Source of the DNA: Candidatus Poribacteria bacterium
Lineage (GTDB): Bacteria > Poribacteria > WGA-4E > WGA-3G
DNA: 64,000 nt
NCBI GenBank assembly: GCA_028824125.1
Contig: JAPPES010000036.1
Location: 15,476-79,475, forward strand
Direction: 5' to 3'
In this document: piece by piece, positions 43,976 to 63,971 of the stretch
How positions within the stretch are numbered: position 1 is the first letter of the stretch
How the letters are laid out: every line of letters starts with the position of its first letter
The notes under the pieces: generated by a model
What the model was told of the DNA's origin: nothing
Database searches by the model: none
Seen by the model: the letters and a program-made list of their open reading frames with translations, nothing else
Position numbers and translations under genes: made by a program

Positions 43976-45337
43976 TTAAATCGAATAAATCATTCGACTC
44001 GCCTCTTCAAATTCAGGTTCGAGTGGGTCAGTAGACAAGTACAGTTTTTGGTAAGGTTCATACAGTTGGATATAACTCCAATTCACACCACACAGAACTT
44101 TTCCATTATTGACAAGTTTGATAAATCTTCCTCGAAACTTTGCGCGGGTACGCTGAGGGGGTGCATGCATCGCGTGTCGAATCTGGGCATCATCTAAAAT
44201 CCGTTCTGTCAAACCTCGTTTTTCGGCTTTGTAGAAAATGCCTTCATCCTGTCGAATGTTGTGATATTCTAAATCTAAGCGTTTCACTTCCGCGGAATCC
44301 CAGCTTAGGGAGCGGTGATTGACATAAGTCTCAATCCATTTTCGTTTAATGACCCAGTCCAGCTCACGTTCCAATTGCATTGGATCATCTTCCAGACAAG
44401 TCATAACGTATTCCCAACGCGCCATTACCTCGTCAGTCGTTGGATCAGATTCTGCTTGTTCAAGATACCGTTTTGCACATTCAAAGTATTGCCATTGAAG
44501 TTCGACAGCAGAAAGTCGTTTTCCGTTTTCAAGTTCAATAAGTCGCTTGCAGGCGATGTCCTCAGAGATTTCGTGTATCGCTTGCACAGAATTGCGCAGG
44601 GCAAAACGTTCATTGATAAAATGATCTTCAATCATGCGTAGAATGATTCCAGTTGTGCCGACTTTCAAAAACGTTGAAAATTCGGACATATTGGAATCAC
44701 CGACGATAACATGTAACCGTCTATATTTTTCTCGGTCAGCGTGAGGTTCGTCGCGGGTGTTGATAATGCCGCGTGCTGTTGTTGTAGCGATAGAAATTTC
44801 TTCTCGGATGTGTTGGGCACGTTGTGAAATCTCATAGAAGCCTTGGTCGCTTCGTTTAACTTTACCCGCGCCTGAGTATATTTGTCGGGTGACAAAAAAA
44901 GGTATGAGTTGTGATGCTAACTGCCGAAAACTAACTTTTTCGCGCTCCATAAGATAGTTTTCATGACAGCCGTAAGTATTTCCGACTGTATCCAAGTTAT
45001 TCTTAAAAATGGTGATCTTGCCACGAAAACCGTCCGCGCGCATTCTTCGCTCAGCAGTTGTGGCAAGCCGAGTTACGATTCGTTCACCTGCCTTATCATG
45101 CGCGACTAATTCGATGACATCATCGCATTCTGGCGTTGCGTATTCAGGATGACATCCAATATCTTGGTAAAACCGCGCGCCGTTTTCTAAAAACACATCG
45201 GGATACATCCGCCCAGAAATAATTTCGCGAAACAGATACATAACGACATTCTGGACCGTTAGTTTTTTGCTTCTGTTTTTCTCTGGGGTACAGATTATCC
45301 CGTACTCGGTTTCCAATCCGTATATTCTACGATGCAT
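43976..45337 (-). CDS. pafA: Pup--protein ligase PafA
   Basis: The 453 aa ORF starts MHRRIYGLETEYGI. It belongs to the Dop/PafA carboxylate-amine ligase family and lacks the Dop-specific insertion. It sits downstream of prcA, as in Mycobacterium. Confidence 0.8.
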   Translation of the reverse strand: MHRRIYGLETEYGIICTPEKNRSKKLTVQNVVMYLFREIISGRMYPDVFLENGARFYQDIGCHPEYATPECDDVIELVAHDKAGERIVTRLATTAERRMRADGFRGKITIFKNNLDTVGNTYGCHENYLMEREKVSFRQLASQLIPFFVTRQIYSGAGKVKRSDQGFYEISQRAQHIREEISIATTTARGIINTRDEPHADREKYRRLHVIVGDSNMSEFSTFLKVGTTGIILRMIEDHFINERFALRNSVQAIHEISEDIACKRLIELENGKRLSAVELQWQYFECAKRYLEQAESDPTTDEVMARWEYVMTCLEDDPMQLERELDWVIKRKWIETYVNHRSLSWDSAEVKRLDLEYHNIRQDEGIFYKAEKRGLTERILDDAQIRHAMHAPPQRTRAKFRGRFIKLVNNGKVLCGVNWSYIQLYEPYQKLYLSTDPLEPEFEEASRMIYSI

Positions 45338-46037
45338 GGTTAAAAATCTCGGTTATCTCTTCAACGGAAAACCGGCGAAATTTACGACGTCCAGCAGTTG
45401 CATCAAGACACGCAACTTCTATGGTATGTGGCGTTATCTGATATGGTTCCGACTCTTCCGCTTCAATGTTTTCAAAAGTTCGTGATGCAAGTTGCAACGC
45501 TTCGGCTAATTCCAAACCCTCTGTAAAAGTATCATTTAATATTTGCGTGATAGCATTTGCTCTGCCGCCTATAACCGCAAATCTTTCTTCTTCCTGATAG
45601 GTCCCGTCAAAGTCAATGTAATAAATCTGGTTACCGACAGCAGGATTTCCATCCACCTCACATACAAGCAGTTCAATCTCTAACGGTTTTGCGTCCCATG
45701 CTTGAGCGATCGCCCCCATGTGTTGTGAATATAGATTTGTCAACCATTTTGCGGTAACATCTTCCCTGTAGTAGGTATAACCTTTCACTTCAGATTCACG
45801 GATACCAGCTACCCGAAGTGCCTCATATTCAGCAACTCGGCCAGTTGAAACAAGTGCTATTTTGTCATAAATTTCTGAAATTTTAAAGGTAGTTCTGCGC
45901 GGGTTTTCGGCAACCATTAAGAGTCCATCCTTATATGCTAAGGCAATTACCTCTTTCGCTTGCTCAATCCCGCGACGGACAAAATCCTTTTTATCTTCCC
46001 AAATCTGTTCAGGCGACACGTAATAAGGCGTCGACAT
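45327..46037 (-). CDS. prcA: proteasome alpha subunit
   Basis: The 236 aa ORF has an N-terminus (MSTPYYVSPEQIWEDKKDFVRRGIEQAKE) typical of bacterial PrcA. Confidence 0.8.
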   Translation of the reverse strand: MSTPYYVSPEQIWEDKKDFVRRGIEQAKEVIALAYKDGLLMVAENPRRTTFKISEIYDKIALVSTGRVAEYEALRVAGIRESEVKGYTYYREDVTAKWLTNLYSQHMGAIAQAWDAKPLEIELLVCEVDGNPAVGNQIYYIDFDGTYQEEERFAVIGGRANAITQILNDTFTEGLELAEALQLASRTFENIEAEESEPYQITPHTIEVACLDATAGRRKFRRFSVEEITEIFNHAS

Positions 46038-46067
46038 TCATAACTCCTCTACTGGACGAAAAAGAAA

Positions 46068-46859
46068 CTACGGTTGTTCCAAGCGAGCGACTAACTCCCG
46101 GTACAACTCAGCAACAGTCTCATCTGGAACTTCGGACACACCTGCTTCTGTAATTAATGTCAAGGTCGGAAAGATTCTCCGAATCAAATCAGGACCGCCA
46201 GTCGCAATATCCTCATCTGCCGCATCCCAGAGTGCTTCTACCACAGCTTTTAGTGCCGATTCTGTGGACATATCCGATTGATACAACTTTTTTAGAGTTG
46301 AACGCGCATCTTTCCCACCGGAACCGATAGCATAATAAGAATCTTCCTCGTAACGTCCGCCAAGCGCATCGTATTTAAAAATCCGCCCACTCCCACGTTT
46401 TAAATCAAAACCAGCAAAAAGCGGCAAAACAATGAGTCCTTGCATAGCTAAACTTAAATTCGCTCTCACAAGACTGGACAAATAATTTGCTTGCCCATCT
46501 AAACTTAAGGGTGAACCTTCTATCTTTTCATAAAATTCGACTTGAACTTGAAAAAGTTTAGCTGTTTCAATACAGGGGCCCGCAACTCCGGCAACTGCTA
46601 TTGCAGAGTGTCTATCAATTTTATAGACTTTCTGAATCCGCCGTTCACCGACTTGGTACCCCTCTGTTGCTTGACGATCACCTGCGATAATCACACCTTC
46701 ATTATATACAAGCGCGAGCACTGTAGTCCCTTCCAAAAAATTTTGCGGGAGGGCACCTTGCAATCCGTTAGGTTGGTTCCAGTTACCAACTTGATCGGGG
46801 TATTTGTTCTTTAGAATTTGTAAAAAATCGGAAGTTCCATAATCATGGCGTTTGAGCAA
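46068..46859 (-). CDS. prcB: proteasome beta subunit (with propeptide)
   Basis: A GTTVLAL active-site Thr follows the propeptide, giving an Ntn-hydrolase. It is located after pup. Confidence 0.8.
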   Translation of the reverse strand: MLKRHDYGTSDFLQILKNKYPDQVGNWNQPNGLQGALPQNFLEGTTVLALVYNEGVIIAGDRQATEGYQVGERRIQKVYKIDRHSAIAVAGVAGPCIETAKLFQVQVEFYEKIEGSPLSLDGQANYLSSLVRANLSLAMQGLIVLPLFAGFDLKRGSGRIFKYDALGGRYEEDSYYAIGSGGKDARSTLKKLYQSDMSTESALKAVVEALWDAADEDIATGGPDLIRRIFPTLTLITEAGVSEVPDETVAELYRELVARLEQP

Positions 46860-46861
46860 CC

Positions 46862-47077
46862 CTACTGCCCTCCCCGCTGGATGTAGTTTTCGACGAATTC
46901 CTCGGAGTCTTCTTCCAGAATTTCGTCGATTTCATCAAGGAGCGCATCTAAATCTTCAGTCAACTCGTTTACGTCTTCATTGAATTCAGAATTGGGTTGT
47001 ATCTCCGCAGTTTCATTCGCGGGATGCTCTCTGTATTCTTGCTGTTTTTCGCTTGGCATGTTGTACTCCTTTTTCAA
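46862..47077 (-). CDS. pup: prokaryotic ubiquitin-like protein Pup (C-terminal GGQ)
   Basis: The 71 aa ORF is acidic and disordered. Its C-terminal helix region is DLDALLDEIDEILEEDSEEFVENYIQRGGQ. The terminal Gln implies a requirement for Dop deamidation. Confidence 0.85.
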   Translation of the reverse strand: MKKEYNMPSEKQQEYREHPANETAEIQPNSEFNEDVNELTEDLDALLDEIDEILEEDSEEFVENYIQRGGQ

Positions 47078-47120
47078 AATTACGGGTAACGGAAACTCCG
47101 TATACCTATGTTATTAGACA

Positions 47121-47248
47121 TTATAGTAAAATCCATAATTACTTGGACACGACGGTAGGTTCGGTTTCCTAACCGAACTTGTGTCCAATCGTGCGGTTAG
47201 AAACCGCACCTACCAGGGAGTGTGAACATATTTTTGGATTTCACTATA
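47121..47248. repeat. MITE family A copy
   Basis: The terminal inverted repeats are ttatagtaaaatcc ... ggatttcactata. The internal hairpins are the same as in 24625..24762. Confidence 0.65.
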
Positions 47249-47278
47249 TTCTATCAGGGGAAACCCTAATCAACAAGA

Positions 47279-48784
47279 TTATTTGCAGTCAACTCGGATT
47301 TGGTTCACAAGTTCAGCGACTGTACAAGTGTTCAGCAGTTCACCAACAATTTCTTGTGTGCCAAAATGTGGACGTTCCATCATAATTTTATCAAAACCGG
47401 TTGGACCGTTGAAAATAATTGAATTCCAACTCACACTATGAATGTCATTAGGAAATTTTCGTAAACATGTTCCTCGAAAATATGCACGGGTATCTAAAGG
47501 TGGATGCTGAATTGCATGAACAATTTCTTCATGAGTCAATATCCGTTCAACATGTCCATTTTTCAGTAAACGTGCATAAAGCCCTTTATCAGGTCGCAGG
47601 TCATGATACTGAAGATCCATCATCCGAACACGCGGATCAGTCCATTTGAAATCGTGACGTGCGACATAAGCACCAATTAGCCGTTTTTTGATGATCCAAT
47701 CTAAATGCTGTCCCAAAGACATCGGATCAGTTTGTAAACCCCTTAAGACAAAATCCCACTTTTCCAAAACATCTTCAACGATAGGCGTTCGATCTTCATC
47801 CGAAAGATGTTGATGTGCAAGTTCGAGATACGCCCGTTGAACCTCTATTGCTGTCCATTTGCGACCATCTTTCAGCTCAATCTTGTTTTTGCAGGATAGA
47901 TCACGCGAGATTGATTTTACCACCGCAACAGGTTCTTGTAAAGCAAATTGTTTACCGATAACACCTTTTTCAATTAATTGCAAGACGATAGCCGTAATGC
48001 CGACTTTGAGATAGATAGCGAATTCGGACATGTTTGAATCGCCCACAATCACATGCAATCGCCGATAAAGTTTAGAATCAGCGTGCGGTTCATCACGGGT
48101 GTTTATCAGCGGCCGTTCAACCATTGTGCTGAGCCCGACCTCTTTTTCAAAGAAATCTGCCCGTTGTGAGATTTGGAAATCGGTATCGTCCGCGCCGTTT
48201 TCAGCGCCTACCTTACCACTTCCTGTAATAATTTGGCGTGTTACGAGAAAAGGCGTTAATCCGTCAACAATATCCGAAAATGGCACTTTACGCGACATCA
48301 AGTAATTTTCATGTGCTCCGTAACTATGTCCTTTATAATCAGTGTTGTTTTTATAGATAATAATTTCTTGATTATCCAGTAGCAACTGCTCTGCAGCGAG
48401 TCGGCTTAAATCTAAAATGAGTTCGCCAGCTTTTTCGTATTTAACCAGATCACGAGCGTTTGAACATTCCGGTGTGCAGTATTCCGGGTGTGCGTGGTCA
48501 ACATAATACCTGCCACCGTTTATCAAAATATCGTTAATAACATTGTGGTTCTCATCCTCAACAGATAGATTTTGACTCTCCTCCATAAATCCACGGGCAT
48601 CCATCAACGGGTTTTCTTGCGCATAATCCCACGAAATCGTTGGAATGTTACGACTTTTATAGGCGTTTACGACTAACGTTGAAGCCGCTATCGGGTCTTG
48701 CTCTCGCGCATTTTTGACAGAGATACCGAACTCTGTTTCGGTTCCGATAATTGTTGGTATTGACATATTCTTTTTTGTTATCAA
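47279..48784 (-). CDS. dop: Pup deamidase/depupylase Dop
   Basis: The 501 aa ORF starts PTIIGTETEFGI and is a PafA/Dop-family member. It is about 48 aa longer than the PafA paralog and lies immediately upstream of pup. The start may be the MSIPTI Met at 48766. Confidence 0.75.
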   Translation of the reverse strand: MITKKNMSIPTIIGTETEFGISVKNAREQDPIAASTLVVNAYKSRNIPTISWDYAQENPLMDARGFMEESQNLSVEDENHNVINDILINGGRYYVDHAHPEYCTPECSNARDLVKYEKAGELILDLSRLAAEQLLLDNQEIIIYKNNTDYKGHSYGAHENYLMSRKVPFSDIVDGLTPFLVTRQIITGSGKVGAENGADDTDFQISQRADFFEKEVGLSTMVERPLINTRDEPHADSKLYRRLHVIVGDSNMSEFAIYLKVGITAIVLQLIEKGVIGKQFALQEPVAVVKSISRDLSCKNKIELKDGRKWTAIEVQRAYLELAHQHLSDEDRTPIVEDVLEKWDFVLRGLQTDPMSLGQHLDWIIKKRLIGAYVARHDFKWTDPRVRMMDLQYHDLRPDKGLYARLLKNGHVERILTHEEIVHAIQHPPLDTRAYFRGTCLRKFPNDIHSVSWNSIIFNGPTGFDKIMMERPHFGTQEIVGELLNTCTVAELVNQIRVDCK

Positions 48785-48871
48785 ATAGACACTGCAGATA
48801 TAAAAGCAATATTAGACTACATACGTGGAAAACCTAAATGTTGAGTTTCGCTACGTTCCCGACATTTGCTG

Positions 48872-50671
48872 CTACAGGTACGTTCCACCTTTACTGACTC
48901 GGACTTCTGGTTTCCTACGCGGCTCCGGTTGATTAATCAATGCCCGAATGTTGACGATTTTTTCACCTTTTCTACCGGAAATCTTTGCCCAATCATCTGG
49001 ATTCGTGGTATTTGGTAGGTCTTCGTTTTCGCGATATTCCTCTCGGATAGCGGTTTTCAAGTCGTCAAGCGAAATTCCCTTTTCCTTCCCTTCCGAATCA
49101 ATCAAGCGTTTAATTGCCGTCTTCTTAGCGCGTGAGACAATGTTTCTAATCATCGCTCCGCTCACAAAATCCTTAAAGAAAAGAGTTTCGCGTTCGCCAC
49201 GGGTGTATGTTACCTCAATAAACCTATTTTCATCTGTGGTAGCGTACATTTCGTCTACAGCCGCGGAGATAAGATGTTCCGAAATGCTATCAGTATTACC
49301 ATCAAATTTATCTATTTCTCCTTTTGCGAACGGAAGGTCCGGTGTTAAATAGATAGCAAAAATATCCCTGGCACCGTCAATATTGGGACGATCAATCTTT
49401 ATTTTAATGTCAAGTCTACCCGGTCTCAAAACAGCAGGGTCAAGGAGGTCTTGTCGATTACTTGCCCCGATAACAATTACATCGCGCAAATTTTCTACGC
49501 CATCTATTTCTGCCAGGAACTGTGGCACCAGTGTAGATTCCATGTCTGATGAAATTCCCATGCCACGCGAGCGGAACAAAGAATCCATTTCGTCAAAGAA
49601 GATAACAACAGGATATCCCTCTTTCGACTTGTCACGTGCTTTTTGGAAGACTTCTCGTATCTTTCTTTCGGTTTCACCAACATATTTATTGAGCAGCTCA
49701 GGGCCTTTAATATTTATAAAATAGCCTCTGACGTCATCTCTGCCGGTTTTTTGTCGGATACTTTCAGCGAGGTTATTCGCTACCGCACGGGCTATCAATG
49801 TTTTTCCACATCCTGGAGGTCCATAGAGTAACACGCCTTTCGGGGGAGTCAGATCAAATTCGCGGTACTCATTCGGGTAAAGGTAGGGCATTTCAATGGC
49901 ATCCCGAATCGCCTCTATCTGTGTATCCAACCCACCGATGTCAGCATAACTTATGTCTGGCACTTCCTCAAGAAGTAGGTCATCAAGTTCACGTTTGGGA
50001 AGTTTTTCAAGGAGCATGCCGCTGGTATGATTCAGCAAGACACTATCCCCTGTCTTCAAAGTTTCGTCTTTTAAAGCTGAGGAAACACGGACAACCTGTT
50101 CCTCATCAGTGCGAAGACTGACAACAGCGCGGTCAGATTCAAGCACCTCTTTTATCTTAACAACATCCCCGTGCTTCTCAGGTGGTTTGATAGCGACGAC
50201 ATTTAAGCCACTATTAACAATGACCTCTTGCCCCACCTGTATTTGATCTGCTTTGAGGGCAGGATCAAGATTCACACGCCATTTTTTCCCGCTGATGTCA
50301 ACATCAATCGTGTTATCATCATTTGTGCCGAGAAAAATACCGTAGTTATTTGGAGGCGCGCTGAGCTGCTTGACTTTCTCTTTTAGGAGTTCAAGTTTTT
50401 CCTTTGCCTCTTGGAGCGTAGTCGTCAGTTTGCGGTTGCGTCTGTGTGCCTGCATCAGCTCTCGCGTCATTTCATACAAGCGCGCGTCCACATCTTCATC
50501 CGGGGCAGTGCTGAGTTGTCTTCGCAGATCACTGACTTCGTTTTCAAGCATTTCTATCTGCCAGTTTAACTCACGAATCCGCTGTGGATAGTCAACCGTG
50601 TTATCTGATTCGATCCCTTCAATATCAGAACCTTTGAATAATTCAGATGAAGTCTCTCTTTTACCAGCCAT
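48872..50671 (-). CDS. arc: proteasome-associated AAA ATPase ARC/Mpa
   Basis: An N-terminal coiled coil (LENEVSDLRRQL...KLELLKEKVKQL) is followed by an OB region and an AAA module (LLYGPPGCGKTLIARAVAN). The ORF could extend to 50734. Confidence 0.75.
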   Translation of the reverse strand: MAGKRETSSELFKGSDIEGIESDNTVDYPQRIRELNWQIEMLENEVSDLRRQLSTAPDEDVDARLYEMTRELMQAHRRNRKLTTTLQEAKEKLELLKEKVKQLSAPPNNYGIFLGTNDDNTIDVDISGKKWRVNLDPALKADQIQVGQEVIVNSGLNVVAIKPPEKHGDVVKIKEVLESDRAVVSLRTDEEQVVRVSSALKDETLKTGDSVLLNHTSGMLLEKLPKRELDDLLLEEVPDISYADIGGLDTQIEAIRDAIEMPYLYPNEYREFDLTPPKGVLLYGPPGCGKTLIARAVANNLAESIRQKTGRDDVRGYFINIKGPELLNKYVGETERKIREVFQKARDKSKEGYPVVIFFDEMDSLFRSRGMGISSDMESTLVPQFLAEIDGVENLRDVIVIGASNRQDLLDPAVLRPGRLDIKIKIDRPNIDGARDIFAIYLTPDLPFAKGEIDKFDGNTDSISEHLISAAVDEMYATTDENRFIEVTYTRGERETLFFKDFVSGAMIRNIVSRAKKTAIKRLIDSEGKEKGISLDDLKTAIREEYRENEDLPNTTNPDDWAKISGRKGEKIVNIRALINQPEPRRKPEVRVSKGGTYL

Positions 50672-50794
50672 ACAAGAAGTTCTCACTTTCCATTGAAAAG
50701 ATTGTGGTATAGTAGACAAAAGTCGGTTTATCATAACCGACTCTTACGCATAGAAGTATAACATGTTGTAATTTTTACATCAAGAAAAAACAAT

Positions 50795-54180: not shown

Positions 54181-54769
54181 GGCGATTCTCCTATTTTCCA
54201 AAATGAATTGTATCTATTTTGAATAAATAGTATAGCATAGCCTATTTTACCTGTCAATGTATTTTTCCCTTTTTCGGCTACAACATTTCAAATTAGAATA
54301 TGATGTTATGCACAGAAAAGCAGTTACAAACCCATTCTACAAGGAAATTTCGGAAAACTGAATTATTCTGTAAAAAGGTATATTTTGTTGCCGAAGTCTC
54401 AGATAAAAGAGAACCTACTAACATCTTGTAATCTATCAGTTGCTGTAGGTAGGCTCGCGACATCCAAATCAACGCTAAATGCACGGACGGTATTTTGCCC
54501 TATTTTGCCACTTTTTGCCATGTTTTTCGGTTTTTGGAATTACCATAATCATTTTACTGTCTATGTTTAGAGGCTTTTTTCGGCCACATGTGACTTGGAT
54601 TCGGGCAATTGCAATCTTACACTTTATCTTTGAGGTGTTTTATCAATATATCCATCAAATTTATGAGTTTTTGCGTTAACCAATCGTCTTTGTTGAGCGT
54701 GTGACTTCTCTCTGATATGAACTTAATTAGACTAATTAGTGCGTCTATTGTTGACGACTGCTCTGAATA

Positions 54770-55285
54770 TCAATCATCTGCTTTTGTTATATCTGGGATG
54801 GAGACTTCTATTTGTTGGGATATATCGGCGATGTTTTTTAGGATATCGCTTTGTGTATTCTGTAGACGTATGCACTCTCGTAGCACTTGCAAAAAATCGG
54901 CTGTTGTGGATATTTCTAACGTCTCACAATTCTCAAGGGTTGTGAGTAACTTATCGTCAAGAAGGTTGAGTCTCTCAAATCGTTCTGTTGTCTTTTTTAA
55001 CGTTGTTTTCAGTGTATCGCGAATTTTCTGTCTGTAAACTGCAATATATTCTTCACGCGCCAAGTCATATATAAGACCATATCTGCTTTTTGAGAAGCGT
55101 TTACTGCTTGGGTTGAGGGATCGCAGGTGCTGACGGATTGCCTCGCGGTTTTCTTTGGTGTTATCCAGTTTTTTTGATTCTAATAGAAAATTAACGATTT
55201 GTTTTGTTTCTGTTCCGCATGCGTATCGTTGTAACACCCCGATCACTTCTTCATCTGATAGGGTAATCGCTTTTTCTTTTCCCAT
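54770..55285 (-). CDS. hypothetical protein
   Basis: The 171 aa ORF, with a GGAGACA RBS-like sequence upstream, has no recognisable motif. Confidence 0.35.
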   Translation of the reverse strand: MGKEKAITLSDEEVIGVLQRYACGTETKQIVNFLLESKKLDNTKENREAIRQHLRSLNPSSKRFSKSRYGLIYDLAREEYIAVYRQKIRDTLKTTLKKTTERFERLNLLDDKLLTTLENCETLEISTTADFLQVLRECIRLQNTQSDILKNIADISQQIEVSIPDITKADD

Positions 55286-55439
55286 GGAATTATGTCTCCT
55301 TATATTTTCGTTCAGTTTGTTTGATGTCTCTTTTTCTGATATAAAAAAATGGCTCGCCTGTTTCCAAGCGCGCCACCGCGTAATTTTAGTAGTGTGAATT
55401 TCATATATATACGACTTGTGCTAATTGACTGTGTGTAAT

Positions 55440-56530
55440 ATATTTCATCCTATATTGTATACTTATGCATAGACAACATCTTTTAATGCCATTAACGGAC
55501 GACCTAAACATTTATTCATGAAAACACCGAGTGCGAAACCACCAAACTTATTGTTCATCCGTGTCAGTAATCCCCAATGAGTTCGGGCACGTATCCGTGA
55601 TATACTGAATTGGTCGCACAGTTGACTTATCGTTGTCTCAACCCGTCGTCTTATTTTTTGATGCAGTTTACGAAACTTTGGTGGATATTGTGCTTTTTGG
55701 TTCTCACGCCGCGTCGGTAATAGACAGACATTATAGGTTTTTAGCATTTGTGCTTCAAGTGCCTCACAAATATATCCTTTGTCTCCAATGATAATAGGGT
55801 AAGTGCCACGCTCACAAAGTAACGGAAGCACTTCTCTGTCATCCATGTCTGCGGGTGTGATGGCAAAATCAACAGGTAATCCATAAGAAGTCGTTATTAT
55901 ACTACACCGAAATCCTAAGAAAGTGCCCAGTGCCTTTGTCACACACTTTCCATAAGCAGCCAAAGTGCCTGTTCCATTCGCACATTTGAGGGGAGTATGA
56001 GAGGCATAGGCTCGCTTGAAATCACATACCGGCACCGGTAAACTATCTACAATATACACCGCATCGTCCGGTAAAAACTATGTCAAGAGTTGCCTGAGTT
56101 TATCACTCATATAGCACAGGTTTCTCCGTCTCCTATTAAAGCGAGACCGTTCGGGTAAATGTGGGAATAGATCGCTGAGTTCTGCTTTGATCATTTTGTA
56201 TCCGGCGAGTTCACTGTCCTTGCCGATAAGCTCTAATAACCAAGCGATGCAAATAATATCACTATCTGGACAACGGCTTTTCGGTCCCGGACGAAGTGCT
56301 TCGGCACCCGGGAAGTAGGTATCGTAAAGCGTTGCGGTGATATTTTGGACGACTGAGGCTGCGTTTCGTAGCGTGCGAGGTTTATTTTTTAGTTGCATTA
56401 CATGCTTTTCTAATGTATCCTGTAAATCCATCCTTATGTTTCCTTTTATAGAGGGTTTACTATAAGGTAGCATAAGGATGCACTTAAAAAACAGAAAATC
56501 CTAAATGTGTAAAACATAATATTACATAAA
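55440..56530 (-). mobile_element. IS982-family insertion sequence with its transposase split into two frames (56078..56473 and 55463..56059)
   Basis: The C-terminal ORF has DDE-region motifs including IIGDKGY and a downstream ...R...E. The N-terminal ORF (131 aa) is in a different frame, and together they reach ~330 aa. The ends of the element were not resolved. Confidence 0.55.
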
Positions 56531-56843
56531 AAGAACTAACTAACACAAGTCGTTATATATGTTAAATTATACCATAGATACGTCCGTTTAGCAATATTAA
56601 TTTTACAGATACATTTGAAGGGGTGGAGTGTTATTTGTGTTTGTCTGAATCTCGGATTATTTCTAAATCAAGGTTGAATGCGCGTCCAGTATTTTGCGTC
56701 GATTTGCCCAATTTTATTTGCGTCCAGCGTAGGTATTCGAGATTTTAGCAAAGACTCAGTTCAGTCTTTCCAGTTTACCTTTGATATTATAACCTGTTGT
56801 CTTGCATGGGTATTTTGATTATAGCACGGTTTGTATTGTAATT

Positions 56844-56910
56844 TAGTGCAATTTTACTGCAATAAAGTGCAATAAAATTGCAATTAGTGCAATGAAAATA
56901 TGTTTGCACT
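56844..56910. promoter_or_regulatory. array of 5 TGCAAT direct repeats at ~10-11 bp phasing
   Basis: The sequence is tagTGCAATtttacTGCAATaaagTGCAATaaaaTTGCAATtagTGCAATgaaaa. The phasing is helical. Confidence 0.35.
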
Positions 56911-56941
56911 TTTTGCGATAGTGTTATAAGTGGTGTTCTGT

Positions 56942-57376
56942 TTACCAGTCATCAGTTGGTAGCAATCCAACCTTTATCAGACTTTGATGAGCATCTACTA
57001 CCAACTTATTATCATCAGTAGAACCCCACATTACAGAGGATCGATTAATCTTCCAAAAACCACGCATCGCTTTTATGAGTGTTTCTGCTTGCTCTTGGGT
57101 TAACTTATTGATTTTGTCCAAGAAATCTGGTGAATTAATTCCCCATCGGTGTTCAGCGTTTGAATGGTGAATCATACCTGCAACCGCTTCAATGAGATAC
57201 CAGATTCTACAAACACGTCTTGGAATATTGATGCCGATATGTAAAAGTGCTTCCGCAATCAGACAATACTCTGGCACTGTGAAACCAATATTTCGGATTG
57301 CTTCTAAATTAGTAGCTACAGCCGCAGCTTTTTCTTGGATTTTTGCTTGTTCTCGGTTTTTTATTTCTGTATTCAT
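56942..57376 (-). CDS. hypothetical protein
   Basis: The 144 aa ORF is mostly helical and has no recognisable motif. Confidence 0.35.
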   Translation of the reverse strand: MNTEIKNREQAKIQEKAAAVATNLEAIRNIGFTVPEYCLIAEALLHIGINIPRRVCRIWYLIEAVAGMIHHSNAEHRWGINSPDFLDKINKLTQEQAETLIKAMRGFWKINRSSVMWGSTDDNKLVVDAHQSLIKVGLLPTDDW

Positions 57377-57406
57377 AACCGTGAGCCTTAACGGTTTTTT
57401 ATCGTT

Positions 57407-59023
57407 TCAGGGTCTTGGTATATCTTTCATCTGTGTATCCAACCATCTTATAATTTCTGCATTCATTCTATGTGGATATACACAGAAAAAAAGAAGCAGT
57501 AAAATAGGATGATCTTTTATAGATGGCGGAATGCATGCACCTTCAGATTCAGAAGAAATAATTTTTAATTCTTCCCAATTTTGCGTATGTTTTGGATGTG
57601 TATATTTGTTTTTTCCTTCTTCACTCCTCCATCTAAAAAAATCGCAAAAATTTTCGGGTTTAAAGGATACAGACGCTAATCTTGTAATGCCGGGCCAAAG
57701 GCCTTTCATAGTTTGCTTCCAGTTTCTACGTGTATACAAATGAACAAGGCCCTCTAATGCATAAGATTCGCCCTTGAAGGAATCCGTAAGGGGTTCTTCA
57801 TTGATCCGAAGAATATAAGGAAGAATATCCTCTACTTCATAATAGGGACTAGCAAGCAAACCGCCTCCCTGCGGTCCGTTGTACCTACATATTAATGAAA
57901 TCAAATCGCGAAGAAAATCGTCGGGTTTCCTCGTTGCATCAATCTTCCGGAAATACCAAAAAAAGGCGAGAATTTGAGGTATTGCCGCTTCTCCCCATAA
58001 CTTCAATTGGATTCTTTTCTCTTTGCAAAATTCACAAAGAAAATCGTCAATTTCATCTTTAGGTACTTCGTCTTTGCATCTCCAAAGAGCATAGATACTC
58101 ATTAAACCCAATAACCATGTTAAGCGCACCCTATAAACATAAGAATCTGCCAAGGGGTTACCCTCTATAAGATCCGTTCGATCTTTAATCTCATCGCAAA
58201 GATTTGCTAAAGAATCATAGAGGAATTGCGTTGCAATTTCAAATTCGCTTTTATAGACATTTTCGGGAAGGTTCCATCTTTCTGCCAGTGCCAGCATATA
58301 AGCGATGTACATAATCCATGCCTCAATTTCGGCTACATGGTTATTCTGGTTGGAAAAACTTGATATCGCAATGGCACACAAAAGTCCTGCACTTGCTATA
58401 GAACGGGTGCAGCGTTTTTGGGAAGGAGCTTTTCCATTCTTAAAAGGCTTAAGTGGTATTGTAGATTCAAACAGTGAAGCAAGTTTTTGCTTTGGAAGAA
58501 TTTCCTTTCCACATTCAAGAAACATTTCAAGTAACGTTTTTATGTCCGTTAATTCCGAAGGCCACAGTTTTGTTCCTAATTTCTTGGCTTTCTCAAACAG
58601 TTCTCCGCGATCTATGGTTCTCAACCGAAGGTATGATTGATTTTGATTCGTCCATGTTTCGTTTCTGCCTTTTATGTCAAAACTGACTTCCTCTGCAATA
58701 TTTCCATTCGTGACAAGATAAGACTTGTGATGTTGTGAAGTTTCAATTGAAGAATGAACTATTTTCCCTACGACTAAACTATCTATCTGTCTACTTACCT
58801 CGTTTTGCCATTTTTTTAAAGTGATGTTGCCTGTTTTCAACTGAAAAGCACAAGGTATCCCATCGCGATCGATAGTTATAATGTCTTTCCCTAGTTCACT
58901 TGCAGAATGCCTCGTAGAATGAATTATCGTATGTCCTTCTGCGGATAACATATAACAGAAAGGCTGCTGGAATGCGCGTTCAGTTGTTTTATCCAACCAA
59001 TTTTCGATCACTCTCTCTAACAC
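57407..59023 (-). CDS. Mrr-catalytic-domain-like (PD-(D/E)xK, D...QxK variant) nuclease fused to a ~430 aa helical domain
   Basis: The N-terminal GKDIITIDRDGIPCAFQLKTG matches the Mrr_cat pattern (D-x-hh-h-D...h-Q-h-K). The rest is unknown. Length is 538 aa. Confidence 0.4.
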   Translation of the reverse strand: MLERVIENWLDKTTERAFQQPFCYMLSAEGHTIIHSTRHSASELGKDIITIDRDGIPCAFQLKTGNITLKKWQNEVSRQIDSLVVGKIVHSSIETSQHHKSYLVTNGNIAEEVSFDIKGRNETWTNQNQSYLRLRTIDRGELFEKAKKLGTKLWPSELTDIKTLLEMFLECGKEILPKQKLASLFESTIPLKPFKNGKAPSQKRCTRSIASAGLLCAIAISSFSNQNNHVAEIEAWIMYIAYMLALAERWNLPENVYKSEFEIATQFLYDSLANLCDEIKDRTDLIEGNPLADSYVYRVRLTWLLGLMSIYALWRCKDEVPKDEIDDFLCEFCKEKRIQLKLWGEAAIPQILAFFWYFRKIDATRKPDDFLRDLISLICRYNGPQGGGLLASPYYEVEDILPYILRINEEPLTDSFKGESYALEGLVHLYTRRNWKQTMKGLWPGITRLASVSFKPENFCDFFRWRSEEGKNKYTHPKHTQNWEELKIISSESEGACIPPSIKDHPILLLLFFCVYPHRMNAEIIRWLDTQMKDIPRP

Positions 59024-59585
59024 GCCATTCCTCCTTTTTTCGTTCCATTAACTCTTTAAAACGTTTATCTATTTCAGGATCAGACTTTGCATCCTCAATA
59101 ACTCTTTTTACTGAAGGAAAAAGCTTAGGGTTTACAGGACACATTAACTCGCTTGGGTTGCCTTCTTCATCAAAATCTATATCAATTTTTTCTAATCCTT
59201 CAAAAAACAAGTCCATTGAGAATGGTTGTCCATCAGCAGAAACCACATTGCCAACTTCTTCAGTTGCTTTGTCAATTACTTCATAGAATGATTTTGCTTG
59301 TTGTCCCGCCATTTCTTCAGCAGCACTATCAATTTTATTAAAAACTGCGGCTTCATTCATTTTCTCAAATTCTTTCGTATTGACCTGAAGTTCAGCTGTA
59401 GCTTGTTTAGGATTCATTTCTTCAACCGAACCATCTGCTCTGATGAGAATGGTTTTGTTTCCCTCAAAATAAAGTGAAACAGGAACATAAGCAATGGGGC
59501 CTAAATGTGATAAATGAGATTGTCTAAATGCTAAATCCAGCATTATTTCCAATTTTTCTTTTGTTTTGAGAAAATCTGGTAACAT
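58989..59585 (-). CDS. hypothetical acidic protein
   Basis: The 198 aa ORF overlaps the downstream gene by 35 nt. Confidence 0.35.
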   Translation of the reverse strand: MLPDFLKTKEKLEIMLDLAFRQSHLSHLGPIAYVPVSLYFEGNKTILIRADGSVEEMNPKQATAELQVNTKEFEKMNEAAVFNKIDSAAEEMAGQQAKSFYEVIDKATEEVGNVVSADGQPFSMDLFFEGLEKIDIDFDEEGNPSELMCPVNPKLFPSVKRVIEDAKSDPEIDKRFKELMERKKEEWRVRESDRKLVG

Positions 59586-59634
59586 AATTCCATCCTTCCT
59601 ATTCTTATGTTTTGTATCAAGTTTTACTAATCAA

Positions 59635-59973
59635 TTACTCCGTAGTAATCTCAGCAGGGAGGTTATCAATAATCCGAGCAGATTCCACACTCACATAAAC
59701 AATACGCTTGATAGCCGCAACCAAATCACGCGGAATAGTCTCGATCTCTACATAGGTTGGATTGTGTTGCAGTTTTGCAAAATGGGACTGAATTGTCTGC
59801 ATCTCGTTCAGGTTTAGAGACAAAGTGCCTTCTTGGCAGATACGCATTAATTCGGCATCATCTGCATTTAGAATCTCTATTTCGTTAACCGTACTGGACA
59901 TCACTTCCTCCGTCGTTACTGTCTTAACTATGATAGGACTTACGCAAATTGGGGACTTTAAGAGGGGGTGCAT
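59635..59973 (-). CDS. hypothetical small protein (112 aa) with a paralogous fragment at 60758..60905
   Basis: The C-terminus ...VYVSVESARIIDNLPAEITTE is duplicated as ...WLMSVVESTCIIDNLPAEITGE on the same strand further along, in a Met-less fragment. Confidence 0.35.
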   Translation of the reverse strand: MHPLLKSPICVSPIIVKTVTTEEVMSSTVNEIEILNADDAELMRICQEGTLSLNLNEMQTIQSHFAKLQHNPTYVEIETIPRDLVAAIKRIVYVSVESARIIDNLPAEITTE

Positions 59974-60031
59974 ATGTCCTATTTTAAAAACTTCTCAAGT
60001 CCAAAACGCCTAATTCCGTTTTTACATGTAA

Positions 60032-60616
60032 TCACGAAGGTAGTTTACTCCCAAATGAAAGTCTACGTGAATGAAGATGGCTACCTAGAGAAAAAATATT
60101 TGACCCGGTTGGATAGATATCGGTTGATCTATATACGCTTAATGTTGCATTATAGAGCAGAGCTGGACATATACCAACTATACGATCAGGATCACGTGGG
60201 CCTTCATGTGTCGCAAAATCATATCTCCATTCATTAAAAGCATTTTGATGATCTATGAAAATAGATTTTACATCAGTCAATCCAGGACGTAAGATGTCTT
60301 GAGGGGTTTCATTCTTAAATATTTTCTCTATTTCTGATATGGATTTTGCTTCTAATATATCGAAATATCTGTATAAATTATGCCCCTTTTTTACAACTTT
60401 ACCCTCCGATTGAATTTTGTATTTCAATAATAATTCGGCTGAGTGGCATACAATCATTGCTATAGATATCGCAGATCCAGCATGATACGTATGCTGGTTT
60501 GCTTTAGAATTATTGTCATCTAAAATGATAAGACTCTTAGCAGAAATAAGCATGCCAGGTATTGTACCTGATAATAATATTTCGTCAATAACGATAGGAT
60601 CGTTATGTTTTTTCAT
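60032..60616 (-). CDS. hypothetical protein
   Basis: The 194 aa ORF has no confident motif. Confidence 0.35.
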   Translation of the reverse strand: MKKHNDPIVIDEILLSGTIPGMLISAKSLIILDDNNSKANQHTYHAGSAISIAMIVCHSAELLLKYKIQSEGKVVKKGHNLYRYFDILEAKSISEIEKIFKNETPQDILRPGLTDVKSIFIDHQNAFNEWRYDFATHEGPRDPDRIVGICPALLYNATLSVYRSTDIYPTGSNIFSLGSHLHSRRLSFGSKLPS

Positions 60617-60757
60617 CTTGGTTCCTCCTTATAGAATTACGAATTTTGGCGTGTTCCCAAGTGGAAAAACTCGGTAGCCTTAGAGAATACCTCCTAAGAG
60701 GTTTTGGTTATAGTGACGATTAGAATTAAAGAGACAATCTAACAAGTTTTACCAATC

Positions 60758-60905
60758 AACTACTCCCCAGTTATCTCAGCAGGCAGATTGTCAATGATGC
60801 AAGTGGATTCTACCACTGACATTAACCAAGCGTTTACGTCGTTGAGGATACCGTTGTTCTTTTCCGGATGTACAATGGTAACTTTACGTTTCAGGCTGAG
60901 ATATT
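60758..60905 (-). pseudogene. truncated paralog fragment of the 59635..59973 gene
   Basis: The translation EYLSLKRKVTIVHPEKNNGILNDVNAWLMSVVESTCIIDNLPAEITGE is preceded by an in-frame stop and has no start codon. The flanking nucleotide similarity (60690..60780 vs 59590..59650) points to a cassette duplication. Confidence 0.45.
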
Positions 60906-61323
60906 CCTAAATACCCGATCTCTTCTTGGGACTCAGCAGCATAAGAACCTCATTTTGCTTTTGCAGGTTATTTGCTAAATTGAGCAGTTGCGCTTTCTCT
61001 ATGTCTGCCTTTGCGCGTTTCTCTTTCAAATCCTGCACTTGTCCCTCCAGTAATTCGATGACTTTCTGGCTGTTATTATGGTGACATTTAGAATTAAAGG
61101 GACATTTTGTAGCATAATCTGTTAGGTGTGCAGAAACGGAACACAACCTAACAGGTTATGCTACAGCGTCTGCGTTAGTTTCGGTTTTCTGACCGAACTG
61201 CTCATAATGTTCAATTAATTCTAAAGTTCACTATATCTGTCATTGATAGGTGTCATTATGGATAGGTGTCATTATGCATTATTTGTTTTGGAAATCGAAT
61301 TCAGAAAGAGTGGACAACCGAAA

Positions 61324-61737
61324 TTACTGATCGTCTGTTAGTTCATCATGTAATTCATAAACATACCTTTTTATACGCATGCAAACTTCTTCTCTGCCCG
61401 GCATAGCGTTTGGATTTGCCCCGCTCCCAGGATGACCATATATACGCTTATCTTTGAGAGTGCTTTCTATTCTCAAAAGCACCTCACTTAAGAAACCTGT
61501 TGCAGGTCTGAGCGTCTGAAAGTCACTGCTGGATTCTTCCACTATGCGCATAGTTTTATATCGGTTCACATCTATATTTTCAACCCCACTTTTTAGAAAT
61601 TTAAGTGCCTCTATAGCACCTAAATTAGCATGATGTTTCGCTTCATCGTATGGAGCAGCTTGAATGCCATCTTTTTTCTCTTGGTATTCAGACAACAAGG
61701 TGCTAATTTCTGTAATAACTTGCGATTTTACGTCCAT
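61324..61737 (-). CDS. hypothetical protein
   Basis: The 137 aa ORF has no confident motif. Confidence 0.35.
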   Translation of the reverse strand: MDVKSQVITEISTLLSEYQEKKDGIQAAPYDEAKHHANLGAIEALKFLKSGVENIDVNRYKTMRIVEESSSDFQTLRPATGFLSEVLLRIESTLKDKRIYGHPGSGANPNAMPGREEVCMRIKRYVYELHDELTDDQ

Positions 61738-61776
61738 TAATTTTTCCTCCGTAAGTATCCTTAATGTAAATAGGAT

Positions 61777-62550
61777 TTATGAGAGTGAGTTAATAACCGG
61801 AAGCACGTCTTCTTCTGGCATTGATCTTAGATTCATGTGTTCATACATCATTGTTCCAGTAGGTAGAGATTCCATTGTATTGGGAATAAGGTATCTCAAG
61901 ACCTCTAATTCTATTCCGGGTGTACTTGAAAAACTAAACATAATATATCCTTTATCGCGGAGTGCGACACACTCAGCTAATGTAGCAAATTGTTCTGTTG
62001 TAGTATTACGACGGATTTCTCTAATCGTAATAAAATTCTTAAAGGATTCGCTCCTTAATGGATATTTCCTTTCCCGCATTTCATTCACTATTTTTATAAT
62101 ACAAAGTTGCCGAAATGTTAGGTTTTCAGATTCCTTACATAGGAAATGTAATGTACCACTATCAACGGTTGAATCAAAACATCCGTTCTCAAATAGTCTG
62201 CCGATGTAAGGTATTTTCTTTTCTTGAGGCTCATCGCGTGCTTTCAATAAAACTTCTTCTAAGACTTCTTCTGCATCCGATCTGTCGGTTATATTATTAA
62301 AGAAACCATCACTTCGAAGCCTTTCACCATTTTCTAATCTACATTGTATTTCATTGAGCGCAAATTGTGTAACATCCAAGATTCGTTTAGCTTGCCTTTC
62401 GCTTGAAAATAGATTTACTATATTATGAAGACGATCCTTTACAAAATTAGCGACAGCATAACCCGCTGACGGGTCCCCAGCCTGATAAGCGGCACTTGTC
62501 CCTACAATCGTGCTAGTTGCTTCAATCGCAATATCTGGTATTTTTGGCAT
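61777..62550 (-). CDS. hypothetical protein
   Basis: The 257 aa ORF has no confident motif. Confidence 0.35.
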   Translation of the reverse strand: MPKIPDIAIEATSTIVGTSAAYQAGDPSAGYAVANFVKDRLHNIVNLFSSERQAKRILDVTQFALNEIQCRLENGERLRSDGFFNNITDRSDAEEVLEEVLLKARDEPQEKKIPYIGRLFENGCFDSTVDSGTLHFLCKESENLTFRQLCIIKIVNEMRERKYPLRSESFKNFITIREIRRNTTTEQFATLAECVALRDKGYIMFSFSSTPGIELEVLRYLIPNTMESLPTGTMMYEHMNLRSMPEEDVLPVINSLS

Positions 62551-62822
62551 TCTAATGAACTCTATCCTTTTTATGGATTCTTACACCATTACGAAGACTT
62601 TAGGTCAGGTATCCATTGGAACAGATTATGTAGATGGTAGTTAAACAACGGAACCTACTTTCTTAGCATCCGAAACAGAACGTTTAATAGTATACAGCAG
62701 AAAAGATGGAAACACAAATCTATTCTGAATCGTTGCGGTACAACGCTTATAACGGGTGTCATTCCTAATTCACTATGGTCGTTAACCACTACACCTATGA
62801 TTAAAATGATCCTTTAAAAAAA

Positions 62823-63971
62823 TCAGTTCACTACCTCTAAATCGAGTATGTGAATATGGTGGCTGTTCGTAAGCCGTTTAACGTTGGGCTTAACAGCACT
62901 ATAGTTTGAGTGTCCCATGTTAGATAGTAACATATCAACTAAACCGATTAAAACTGACTCAGTAGCATTATCATTAATATCATTCTCATCATAATCAATT
63001 GCTCCAAGATTTTGAAGTAATTGAATGTTGGAATTGTCCACAAGTTGAAGGTCAACAGTATCATAACGGCTAAGACGAATCACGATCTTAGTCGACTTTG
63101 AAGGTATCACCCAAGGATAAACTGCACGGTCAGTTATTATTGTATTACCTTCTTTGTCTTTGAATGATACCGAGTAAACAACATTTTTTACATCTTTACT
63201 GGAACGGTTTTGCAAAGGAAATGTAAATGAGGCTGATCCAACCCATTTCAGATTGTCTATGTATGTTATCCGTTCCAATTTTGCCTTCGACAATGGAGTT
63301 GTTATGTTCAATTTTTTACGTTGCTTAATAAGTAGTGCTAGGCAATTGGAAGGAATGGCGAAATTAAGATTCTGAGCAACATTAATATATTGTTCATCTT
63401 CGGGATTTTGCGAAGCAACAGACCTGAGTGAAGGTAATAAGGACACCGAGACACCGATAACCTCACCTTTGGTATTTAGGACAGCCCCTCCACTGTTCCC
63501 TGGGGAAATTGGAGCGGTAAACTGAATACTTGTATAGAAGATGTTTTGCGATGGATCATGATTTCTAATTCCACTTACGATACCGTCTGAGATTGTGCCT
63601 TCCAAACCTGCAGGATTACCAAGTGCGTAAATAACTTCTCCGATATCAACTATATCACTATCGCCAAGAGAAAGTGCAGTTGTGCTAACAATTTTCTGAT
63701 CCGGATCTTTGATCTTCAATATAATTAAATCGTTGTCCACATCAAGGGCTGTGTATTCTTCAATGGTATACCGTTCACTTTGTCCAAACAGCTTTACTGA
63801 GCATTTGTGTGCACCTTCAACAACATGAAAGTTGGTTGCAACTTCATTCTCTTGGACGAAGAATCCGCTACCAAACCCAAGTGGTTGTCCATTAGAATCT
63901 TCAGTTTCTAAAAGCACTGTAGATGGTAAAGCCTTATTGGCAATTTCCTGAGTGCTTTTTATATTTTCCAT
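62823..63971 (-). CDS. trypsin-like (S1/chymotrypsin-fold) serine protease domain fused to a C-terminal ~180 aa domain of unknown function, with no PDZ domain
   Basis: The catalytic triad context is TNFHVV (His), DNDLIIL (Asp) and GNSGGAV (Ser). No signal peptide is evident. Confidence 0.55.
   Translation of the reverse strand: MENIKSTQEIANKALPSTVLLETEDSNGQPLGFGSGFFVQENEVATNFHVVEGAHKCSVKLFGQSERYTIEEYTALDVDNDLIILKIKDPDQKIVSTTALSLGDSDIVDIGEVIYALGNPAGLEGTISDGIVSGIRNHDPSQNIFYTSIQFTAPISPGNSGGAVLNTKGEVIGVSVSLLPSLRSVASQNPEDEQYINVAQNLNFAIPSNCLALLIKQRKKLNITTPLSKAKLERITYIDNLKWVGSASFTFPLQNRSSKDVKNVVYSVSFKDKEGNTIITDRAVYPWVIPSKSTKIVIRLSRYDTVDLQLVDNSNIQLLQNLGAIDYDENDINDNATESVLIGLVDMLLSNMGHSNYSAVKPNVKRLTNSHHIHILDLEVVN

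Follow-up and report, generated by a model that had tools for sequence, protein, structure and literature searches.

A probable composite defence island downstream of a Type ISP restriction gene in Candidatus Poribacteria, and a candidate two-gene nuclease module within it

What does a run of open reading frames (ORFs) without housekeeping assignment represent when it stands next to recA and a proteasome operon on the chromosome of a sponge symbiont, Candidatus Poribacteria? The run lies on the minus strand at 54770-63971 of a 64,000-nucleotide stretch of contig JAPPES010000036.1 (assembly GCA_028824125.1); this whole stretch is called the window, and coordinates refer to it unless another locus is named. 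A preliminary description of the stretch had offered two possibilities, an anti-phage defence island or an integrated mobile element, and had added that none of the gene combinations could be named and that the island might continue past the end of the window. In our assessment the region probably belongs to a composite anti-phage defence island, of which it is the downstream part; the island is anchored on a Type ISP restriction-modification gene and carries stacked cassettes together with a nuclease module, encoded by two genes for proteins of 198 and 538 amino acids (the 198/538 pair). The island is of a known type; its new parts, both found by computation, are the 198/538 module and the repeats at the cassette boundaries. 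We also put forward, tentatively and at less than even likelihood, that the pair is a previously unnamed, widespread anti-phage system lodging preferentially beside Type ISP and Hma genes as a second line of defence, and that in Poribacteria different defence cassettes can be exchanged and stacked behind one restriction gene since the last ~100 nucleotides of the Type ISP gene are a portable homology anchor.

The Type ISP anchor and the limits of the island

Genes beyond the window were read on the source contig (ENA ERZ23495471, ROBB21-1_SAMN13943213_METAG-scaffold_541), a metagenomic scaffold of 94 kb that encodes the protease of 62823-63971 without any difference in sequence and reaches 7.4 kb past the window. 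Loci used for comparison carry L numbers; L001 is the source contig with the minus strand of the window as its plus strand, and a window coordinate equals 71355 minus the L001 coordinate. The ORFs of the block were compared with the profile libraries Pfam, NCBIfam, PHROGs and PADLOC v2.0.0, and also with PDB. The guess that the island continues beyond 64000 was correct, because the source contig carries a Type ISP gene past the window. This gene (1607 amino acids) terminates at window position 64001, 30 nucleotides before a protease gene, and more genes lie upstream of it. The precomputed Pfam domains of its product (Mrr_cat_2, ResIII, Helicase_C, ISP_coupler, a weak N6_Mtase and Type_ISP_C) make up the complete set, and the product matched the PADLOC REase_MTase model PDLC03597 over the model's full length with 1902 bits. 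Judged by these domains, the anchor is a Type ISP enzyme with predicted nuclease, superfamily 2 helicase-like motor, coupler, N6-adenine methyltransferase and target recognition parts. Upstream of it (L001 19-2195), a helix-turn-helix gene matches capH (9.3e-14) and an M78 peptidase gene matches capP (8.6e-27), with an HTH_3-type and a Peptidase_M78 domain in Pfam, respectively. The presence of these CapH-like and CapP-like genes before the Type ISP gene suggests that the island may be under damage- or infection-responsive control. Beyond them, on the opposite strand, PADLOC reported a 193-residue LmuA-like fragment.

On the other side, the minus-strand ORFs at 54770-63971 are all without housekeeping assignment, as had been described, and housekeeping genes follow from 54201 on (LolA, pgsA, a LigT-type phosphoesterase, recA and then the Pup-proteasome operon, by Pfam). 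The deviation in guanine-plus-cytosine (GC) content that the preliminary description proposed to look for is present, with values of 0.34-0.40 in the cassette genes against 0.40-0.48 in most adjoining housekeeping genes, LolA itself having 0.375. The block also varies in presence between neighbouring genomes. In L042, the complete chromosome of a second Poribacteria species, the same LolA-pgsA-LigT-recA-proteasome flank adjoins a Type ISP gene that is directly followed by 198- and 539-residue genes and next by an SLFN/ATPase gene. This locus has no protease/257/137/194 block of 4.26 kb, no 144-residue ORF, no IS982 element and no 171-residue ORF. Relative to L042, the window has a 4.26-kb insertion at 63995-59735, with direct copies of the Type ISP 3' end at both borders. 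Together with the anchor and the CapH/CapP-like genes, this variability supports the first of the two original possibilities, the defence island.

The second possibility would make the block in its entirety an integrated mobile element (a transposon, an integrative and conjugative element or the remnant of a prophage) and not a chromosomal hotspot built by homologous recombination; we regard it as very unlikely. It would be in line with the GC content below that of most adjoining housekeeping genes, with the IS982 element and a repeat resembling a miniature inverted-repeat transposable element (MITE), and with a near-identical copy of the first cassette at a different locus of another genome; furthermore, only 2.5 kb of contig remain upstream of the Type ISP gene, leaving the far boundary out of view. 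However, the 18.5 kb of contig examined contain neither an integrase or recombinase gene nor a tRNA gene or a gene for a phage structural protein, no relative of the 198/538 pair was found in phage records or, by a pattern-based scan, in IMG/VR, and the Type ISP-198-538 core occupies the same chromosomal site in the second species. A chromosomal hotspot is therefore the more apt description of what we take to be a defence island.

The remark that no system could be named also held. Against the PADLOC v2.0.0 system models, the six ORFs without assignment gave no match at E <= 0.001; up to E = 0.1, the 171-residue ORF (0.024) and a scar ORF described below (0.0044) had matches and nothing else did. 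The sole resemblance of the block to a PADLOC entry is in the protease domain.

The 198/538 pair

The two genes make up the third cassette downstream of the anchor.

58989-59585, minus strand: cassette 3, gene 1; acidic protein of 198 amino acids (isoelectric point 4.75) with a basic C-terminal tail; overlaps the 538-residue gene by 35 nucleotides
57407-59023, minus strand: cassette 3, gene 2; protein of 538 amino acids, the N-terminal ~150 a predicted Mrr/FokI-type PD-(D/E)xK nuclease domain and the remaining ~390 all-helical

The pair combines an active-site motif and a nuclease fold with translational coupling, is conserved as a module and has defence genes for neighbours. In an alignment of 64 sequences of the 538-residue family, reaching down to 29% identity, the residues W9, E15, L26, E43, G45, D47, Q61, K63, N228, E345 and R519 are invariant, and E15, E43, D47, Q61 and K63 among them form the PD-(D/E)xK motif. 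The AlphaFold2 model calculated from this alignment had a mean predicted local distance difference test score (pLDDT) of 92.2 and a predicted template modelling score of 0.87; an earlier model from 22 sequences at ~70% identity (pLDDT 47.7) was discarded. The N-terminal domain is predicted to have a restriction-endonuclease-like alpha/beta fold, and the closest folds include MspJI, AspBHI and Mrr-type endonucleases. For the 198-residue protein, 285 relatives were found, none of which has a Pfam domain; their alignment contains invariant residues. Neither protein had a notable Pfam, NCBIfam, PHROG, PADLOC or PDB sequence match, PDB profile searches with both gave nothing significant, and Foldseek against PDB gave no global match. 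In PADLOC-DB v2.0.0, nothing matched the window pair at E <= 0.1 or the members from Neomoorella and Rhodococcus at E <= 0.01. No paper that names the pair came up in a literature search by accession and description.

Full-length relatives of the 538-residue protein run into the hundreds at 68-90% identity. A search of 1.84 billion cluster representatives placed 1118 clusters (50% identity) in its family at E <= 0.001 and 488 at E <= 1e-30, the length being about 540 residues among the full-length matches listed. Most genome matches are from Poribacteria, with others from Bryobacterales, Neomoorella, Desulfovirgula, Dadabacteria, Victivallales and Thermodesulfobacteriota. The family spans at least seven phyla and also occurs on a plasmid. 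The 198-residue gene precedes the 538-residue-family gene in every full locus checked, and the 35-nucleotide overlap was seen in all loci for which gene coordinates were read (6/6). The plasmid, from Rhodococcus, carries a distant pair whose large gene is annotated 'restriction endonuclease' and whose small protein aligns with an hhalign probability of 96%; this was the sole find of the plasmid search.

In order to have a more comprehensive view of the module, its neighbours have to be considered. A Type ISP gene lies directly upstream of the pair in 8 distinct Poribacteria loci, and farther upstream or as remnants in others. An Hma helicase (642 bits) and methylase (430 bits) adjoin the pair in L004, with homologues in L017 and in the Neomoorella locus L028. 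Other loci have a CBASS cyclase and 2TM effector between the Type ISP gene and the pair (L043), PIN_12 and HNH genes (L030), an AAA_5/EVE ATPase and a CHAT-AAA_16-TPR protein that we read as McrB and STAND (L033), a TPR-GreAB-C-PIN protein (L034), an integrase and an IS91-type transposase (L025), or, on the Rhodococcus plasmid, genes for a Hachiman-like helicase and an OLD-type nuclease. A gene that is embedded in an Hma or restriction-modification locus often belongs to a defence system (Payne et al. 2024, bioRxiv 10.1101/2024.01.29.577857), and the neighbourhood pattern of the pair fits this embedding argument.

Two further observations were made at these loci. In L035 (10001-10117), the last 39 residues of a 538-residue homologue lie directly upstream of the HmaA helicase gene; this remnant is a deletion scar at a junction that is intact in L004 and L017. 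An ABC-type ATPase gene stands directly before the pair in L004 (6157-7371) and L017 (7148-8317), where it is HEC-01A-like, and in L041 (3909-4337), the Rhodococcus plasmid, where just a fragment with the annotation 'AAA family ATPase' is present. With the ABC-type ATPase included, the module may thus have three genes in some of its versions.

The neighbours also raise an alternative in which the pair is not autonomous and has a guard or helper function for the Type ISP or Hma system next to it, either as a PrrC-like backup nuclease that fires once an anti-restriction protein has blocked this neighbour or as an extra nuclease module recruited by the translocase. Its position directly after the Type ISP gene in the 8 Poribacteria loci, its place beside or inside the Hma loci L004, L017 and L028 together with the 39-residue remnant in L035, and the acidic character of the small partner would agree with such a role, for which PrrC in EcoprrI is a precedent (discussed in Payne et al. 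2024). We nevertheless consider it unlikely, as no Type ISP gene is found near the pair outside Poribacteria, the pair has unrelated or no neighbours in L025, L026, L030, L033 and L034, L044 has lost its Type ISP gene and retains the pair, and the link to Type ISP may reflect only a shared hotspot. Because the module is found without Type ISP in other phyla, we infer that it works alone.

As a system of its own, the pair would operate as follows. The translationally coupled 198- and 538-residue proteins would form a complex, in which the 538-residue protein would cut DNA as a Mg2+-dependent endonuclease of the Mrr type. Its large helical domain, jointly with the small acidic partner, would keep the nuclease inactive until an infection cue, and the pair would then act as an autonomous second-line nuclease beside methylation-based restriction systems.

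A different reading of the same fold makes the 538-residue protein a Type IV (modification-dependent) endonuclease, with a helical domain that reads modified phage DNA and the 198-residue protein as specificity or control subunit. Type IV enzymes commonly adjoin restriction-modification systems. The closest folds include the modification-dependent MspJI and AspBHI, which have the same D...QxK motif, besides Mrr-type endonucleases, and the conserved polar residues N228, E278, R300, E345, Y394 and R519 of the helical domain suggest a binding pocket. On the other hand, no known DNA-reading domain (SRA, winged helix, DUF3578 etc.) was detected in the 538-residue protein, its domain order is opposite to that of MspJI and Mrr, and an obligatory partner gene is unusual among Type IV enzymes. 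This makes the Type IV reading quite doubtful, more so than a guard function.

Lastly, a small acidic protein translationally coupled to a nuclease could be regarded as a toxin-antitoxin-like addiction module, or the pair as a hitch-hiking selfish element, with no role in phage defence. Its patchy occurrence across phyla, near integrases and transposases and on a plasmid, would suit this. Both proteins are however far larger than typical type II toxin-antitoxin partners, and the neighbours of the pair are overwhelmingly defence genes. The conserved 390-residue helical domain also indicates more than a simple toxin. We give this explanation very little chance.

Type ISP 3' ends, the purL scar and a proposed stacking of cassettes

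Three cassettes lie downstream of the anchor, each with a copy of the Type ISP gene's last ~75-140 nucleotides in front. The copies, located by nhmmer and then aligned, stand before the protease gene, a 194-residue gene and the 198-residue gene. Two of them are remnants within the window, and the genuine end of the gene at 64001 brings the number of Type ISP 3' ends on the contig to three.

60740-60836, minus strand: second, degenerate copy of the Type ISP 3' end (nhmmer 1.4e-10, and alignment), upstream of the 194-residue gene
59629-59734, minus strand: Type ISP 3' end, third copy, comprising the last 32 codons and the 3' flank; directly upstream of the 198-residue gene
59735-59913, minus strand: purL 5' fragment (first ~56 codons and leader), fused in frame to the third copy; the two form pseudo-ORF 59635-59973

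The preliminary description had noted a small gene with a duplicated fragment. The duplication is real, as 59615-59688 and 60740-60813 are 80% identical. The gene did not survive inspection: residues 21-80 of ORF 59635-59973 are the N-terminus of purL and residues 81-112 are the last 32 residues of the Type ISP protein, and the ORF was rejected as a gene in favour of a chimeric purL-5'::Type-ISP-3' recombination scar. The duplicated piece was likewise rejected as part of a small gene; it is left over from the Type ISP gene next to the cassettes, namely from its 3' end. The purL fragment has an FGAR-AT_linker match in Pfam (7.5e-8) and 80-87% identity to genuine purL starts of other Poribacteria; there is no other purL sequence within the window. 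An operon at 57407-60616, which had been suggested as a unit for cloning, has to be abandoned, for it spans two cassettes and the scar.

The purL::ISP junction of the window recurs in L006 and, by protein match, in L009, so that it occurs in at least three species. Because it is common to L006 and L009, the junction is old and inherited. In other Poribacteria, the interval between PEP_hydrolase and purL is a variable defence hotspot. Its content is Type ISP-198-535 in L005. In L036 a gene for a Type IIG enzyme is followed by a remnant of the ISP 3' end and then by the protease gene, an IS3 element and genes for 257, 137 and 132 residues; L044 has an ISP remnant, DUF4268 (PADLOC candidate PDC-S11), a second ISP remnant and 198-539. 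The purL-5'::ISP-3' junction shows that part of the array in the window came from this second hotspot.

The same hotspot holds a copy of cassette 1, the genes of which are as follows.

62823-63971, minus strand: cassette 1, gene 1; cytoplasmic S1C (HtrA-type) serine protease of 382 amino acids (Trypsin_2, 3e-26)
61777-62550, minus strand: cassette 1, gene 2; protein of 257 amino acids without match in Pfam, NCBIfam, PHROGs, PADLOC or PDB
61324-61737, minus strand: cassette 1, gene 3; protein of 137 amino acids without match in Pfam, NCBIfam, PHROGs or PADLOC

Positions 64138-61326 are 96-99% identical to L036, and the identity ends exactly inside the ISP 3' end on one side and at the end of the 137-residue gene on the other. 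Cassette 1 (ISP 3' end, protease, 257- and 137-residue genes) is a discrete 2.8-kb unit with a copy at the purL hotspot of another genome. The 257-residue protein has a 98.8% identical copy after the protease in L036, and a scan of JGI metagenomes gave no relative of it. An IS3-family element (L036 9370-10499) lies between the protease and the 257-residue gene, inside the otherwise 96-99% identical copy. The protease adjoins a Type ISP gene in L038; in L036 its neighbour is a remnant of the ISP 3' end, with the Type IIG gene upstream. The protease cassette directly follows restriction genes in three genomes and travels as a unit.

As had been stated at the outset, the protease is an S1 enzyme with a C-terminal domain of no known family and with neither PDZ domain nor signal peptide. 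The triad His49, Asp81 and Ser160 is invariant in 20 relatives, and with its trypsin fold the protein has the catalytic hallmarks of HtrA/DegP (S1C) proteases. HtrA/DegP structures align to residues ~10-218 only, and the C-terminal ~165 residues are a conserved domain. No PDZ match was obtained in Pfam and no hydrophobic N-terminal segment is present, so the PDZ and export features of HtrA/DegP are missing. The protease domain also aligns with PADLOC RT-Protease_XI at 5e-16. Among viral contigs, only generic protease-domain matches were obtained.

The ISP 3' element is not confined to loci with a Type ISP gene. In L044 and L009, both without one, it precedes a DUF4268/PDC-S11 gene and a 198-residue gene. 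Our inference is that two sequences, the conserved 3' end of the ISP gene and the 5' end of purL, are homology anchors at which recombination would swap and stack cassettes, and that the array was assembled in part from the purL hotspot. An integron-type or other site-specific cassette array is a poor description, given that the examined 18.5 kb contain no integrase or recombinase and that the repeat is a piece of coding sequence.

Several points weigh against the composite island with its portable cassettes and autonomous nuclease. The defence role of the 198/538 pair rests on its neighbourhood and on the nuclease fold, and in L026 the pair lies between a methylmalonyl-CoA mutase and an efflux gene, with housekeeping neighbours only and no defence gene. 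The window protein has no hit to Pfam Mrr_cat at the gathering score; Mrr_cat gave one match among 64 diverse members of the family (E = 0.0068), and the distant Rhodococcus member scored 22.8 bits (cut-off 21). The Mrr-cat nuclease fused to a helical region, as it had first been described, accordingly keeps its invariant motif and predicted fold and loses its Pfam label. Structure comparison of the ~390-residue helical domain gave generic helical repeats only and no specific structural relative, and since an informative structural match is lacking, a 'sensor' role is a guess. The pair may also match a recently named system beyond PADLOC v2.0.0. As to the repeats, the second copy in the window and the short remnants of L009 and L044 resemble each other by eye upstream of the core, and these may therefore descend from one ancestral remnant instead of independent events; the ISP 3' copies could equally be passive leftovers of deletions and not substrates of recombination. 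Finally, the profile searches gave no functional clue for the 257-, 137-, 144- and 171-residue ORFs.

Remaining features and comparison with known systems

The second cassette and the features on the LolA side of the 538-residue gene complete the block.

61077-61236, no strand assigned: MITE-like repeat with terminal inverted repeats; a solo terminal repeat at 60709-60736
60032-60616, minus strand: cassette 2; weakly HEPN-like protein of 194 amino acids (Pfam HEPN 18.5 bits, cut-off 22, E = 0.0024)
56942-57376, minus strand: ORF of 144 amino acids, 30 nucleotides after the 538-residue gene, without Pfam, NCBIfam, PHROGs or PADLOC family
56847-56893, no strand assigned: phased array of six TGCAAT/ATTGCA hexamers at 9-11 bp spacing, 6 of the 55 TGCAAT matches of the window
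55411-56553, minus strand: IS982-family insertion sequence with interrupted transposase frame, single copy in the window
54770-55285, minus strand: ORF of 171 amino acids, the last non-housekeeping gene before LolA, with faint sigma-70/HTH-like matches (TIGR02989 0.0074, phrog_351 0.037)

The translation of the 194-residue gene contains an R-x5-H motif (RYDFATH), read from a single sequence with a HEPN match below the cut-off, and no homologue was found in the other loci compared. The protease cassette and this HEPN-like gene may be further effectors, a proposal with less support than that for the 198/538 pair.

The MITE-like repeat has terminal inverted repeats TATAGTGAC and TTTAGAATTAA and a hairpin of 20 bp with 95% complementarity at 61108-61165. 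Related copies occur in the Poribacteria genome L044 at 2890-2975 and 15695-15824. A 79-residue ORF at 60907-61146 begins within the repeat; it is absent from the gene calls of the source contig and is probably not a gene. Rfam over 52-64 kb gave only spurious, microRNA-shaped chance hits on hairpins.

The split IS982 transposase was recognised correctly from the start. Its C part (55463-56059) scored 147.3 bits against NF033520 (cut-off 130), its N part (56078-56473) is a weak match, and the two are one frame of 336 codons with a single in-frame stop, which makes it a probable pseudogene. The element is bordered by imperfect 16-nucleotide terminal inverted repeats (88%) at 55411-55426 and 56538-56553. 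Like the MITE-like element, this probable IS982 pseudogene would be debris from the turnover of the island. Just outside the IS982 inverted repeat, at 56566-56594 on the minus strand, a promoter-like TTGCTA, 17 nucleotides and TATAAT with an upstream TG read into the element. A 54-nucleotide stretch upstream of LolA is ~70% identical to one upstream of IS982 (56662-56715), and the copies bracket IS982 and the 171-residue ORF. The 10-bp periodic repeat TATTTTGCCA (x3.6) also lies upstream of LolA, at 54463-54526.

The six phased hexamers of the TGCAAT array are real (about 0.04 would be expected in 47 bp by our estimate), as had been noticed; the label of iteron-like array given to them is not retained. 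An iteron or origin was rejected on finding no rep-type gene in the block with Pfam, NCBIfam and PHROGs and no change in GC skew. On the minus strand, the array is followed by TGcTATAAT at 56826-56818, and no further copy was found in the window or the compared loci. The pattern of these letters suggests phased regulator-binding sites before a putative promoter.

The 144- and 171-residue ORFs have no counterpart in related loci. The 143- and 172-residue genes downstream of purQ in L005 and L036 were considered as homologues and rejected, there being no tblastn match at 1e-3.

Farther from the block, the window has a full Pup-proteasome set at 43976-50734 (genes for a proteasomal ATPase, for two members of the Pup-ligase family and for two subunits of the proteasome, which are presumably alpha and beta), an arrangement also found in L042. 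Adjoining this operon, a second low-GC patch (41279-43307, 0.37-0.39) holds a 462-residue ORF that matches no Pfam family at E <= 1e-5, together with a 215-residue fragment in which a methylase domain of Type III restriction-modification was recognised; the patch may represent a further, small defence islet.

For further work, the 198/538 pair offers a clonable 2.3-kb candidate defence system from a family of ~1100 clusters, which has an intact restriction-type active site but is annotated neither in Pfam or PADLOC nor by structure. In the recurring 3' ends of the Type ISP gene and the purL::ISP junction common to several species, the locus offers a readable record of cassette exchange and stacking at a defence hotspot.

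In order to place the parts of the island among known systems, we compared each with its closest relatives. The anchor gene shares its full domain set with Type ISP enzymes such as LlaGI and LlaBIII. The N-terminus of the 538-residue protein shares motif and predicted fold with Mrr/MspJI/FokI-type domains, whereas the protein as a whole differs from these enzymes in having the nuclease N-terminal, a fused helical part of ~390 residues, a 198-residue partner and a score below the Pfam threshold. The protease has the catalytic domain and triad of HtrA/DegP and RT-Protease_XI; unlike these it lacks PDZ domain, signal peptide and reverse transcriptase, carries the C-terminal domain of no known family and stands directly after a restriction gene. 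In embedded-defence loci (PrrC in EcoprrI, and the Hma-embedded candidates of Payne et al. 2024) extra defence-type genes accompany a restriction gene, as here. There they lie between restriction subunits, whereas here they follow the anchor, and the appended genes match no HEC or PDC model of PADLOC v2.0.0. A copy of the anchor's 3' end with each cassette is a feature of this island for which we found no description elsewhere. With known defence islands the locus shares a content that varies between relatives while the flanks stay fixed (the LolA side; PEP_hydrolase-purL), and it differs from them in that what marks its cassette borders is sequence repeated from the flanking genes, namely from the 3' end of the Type ISP gene and the 5' end of purL.

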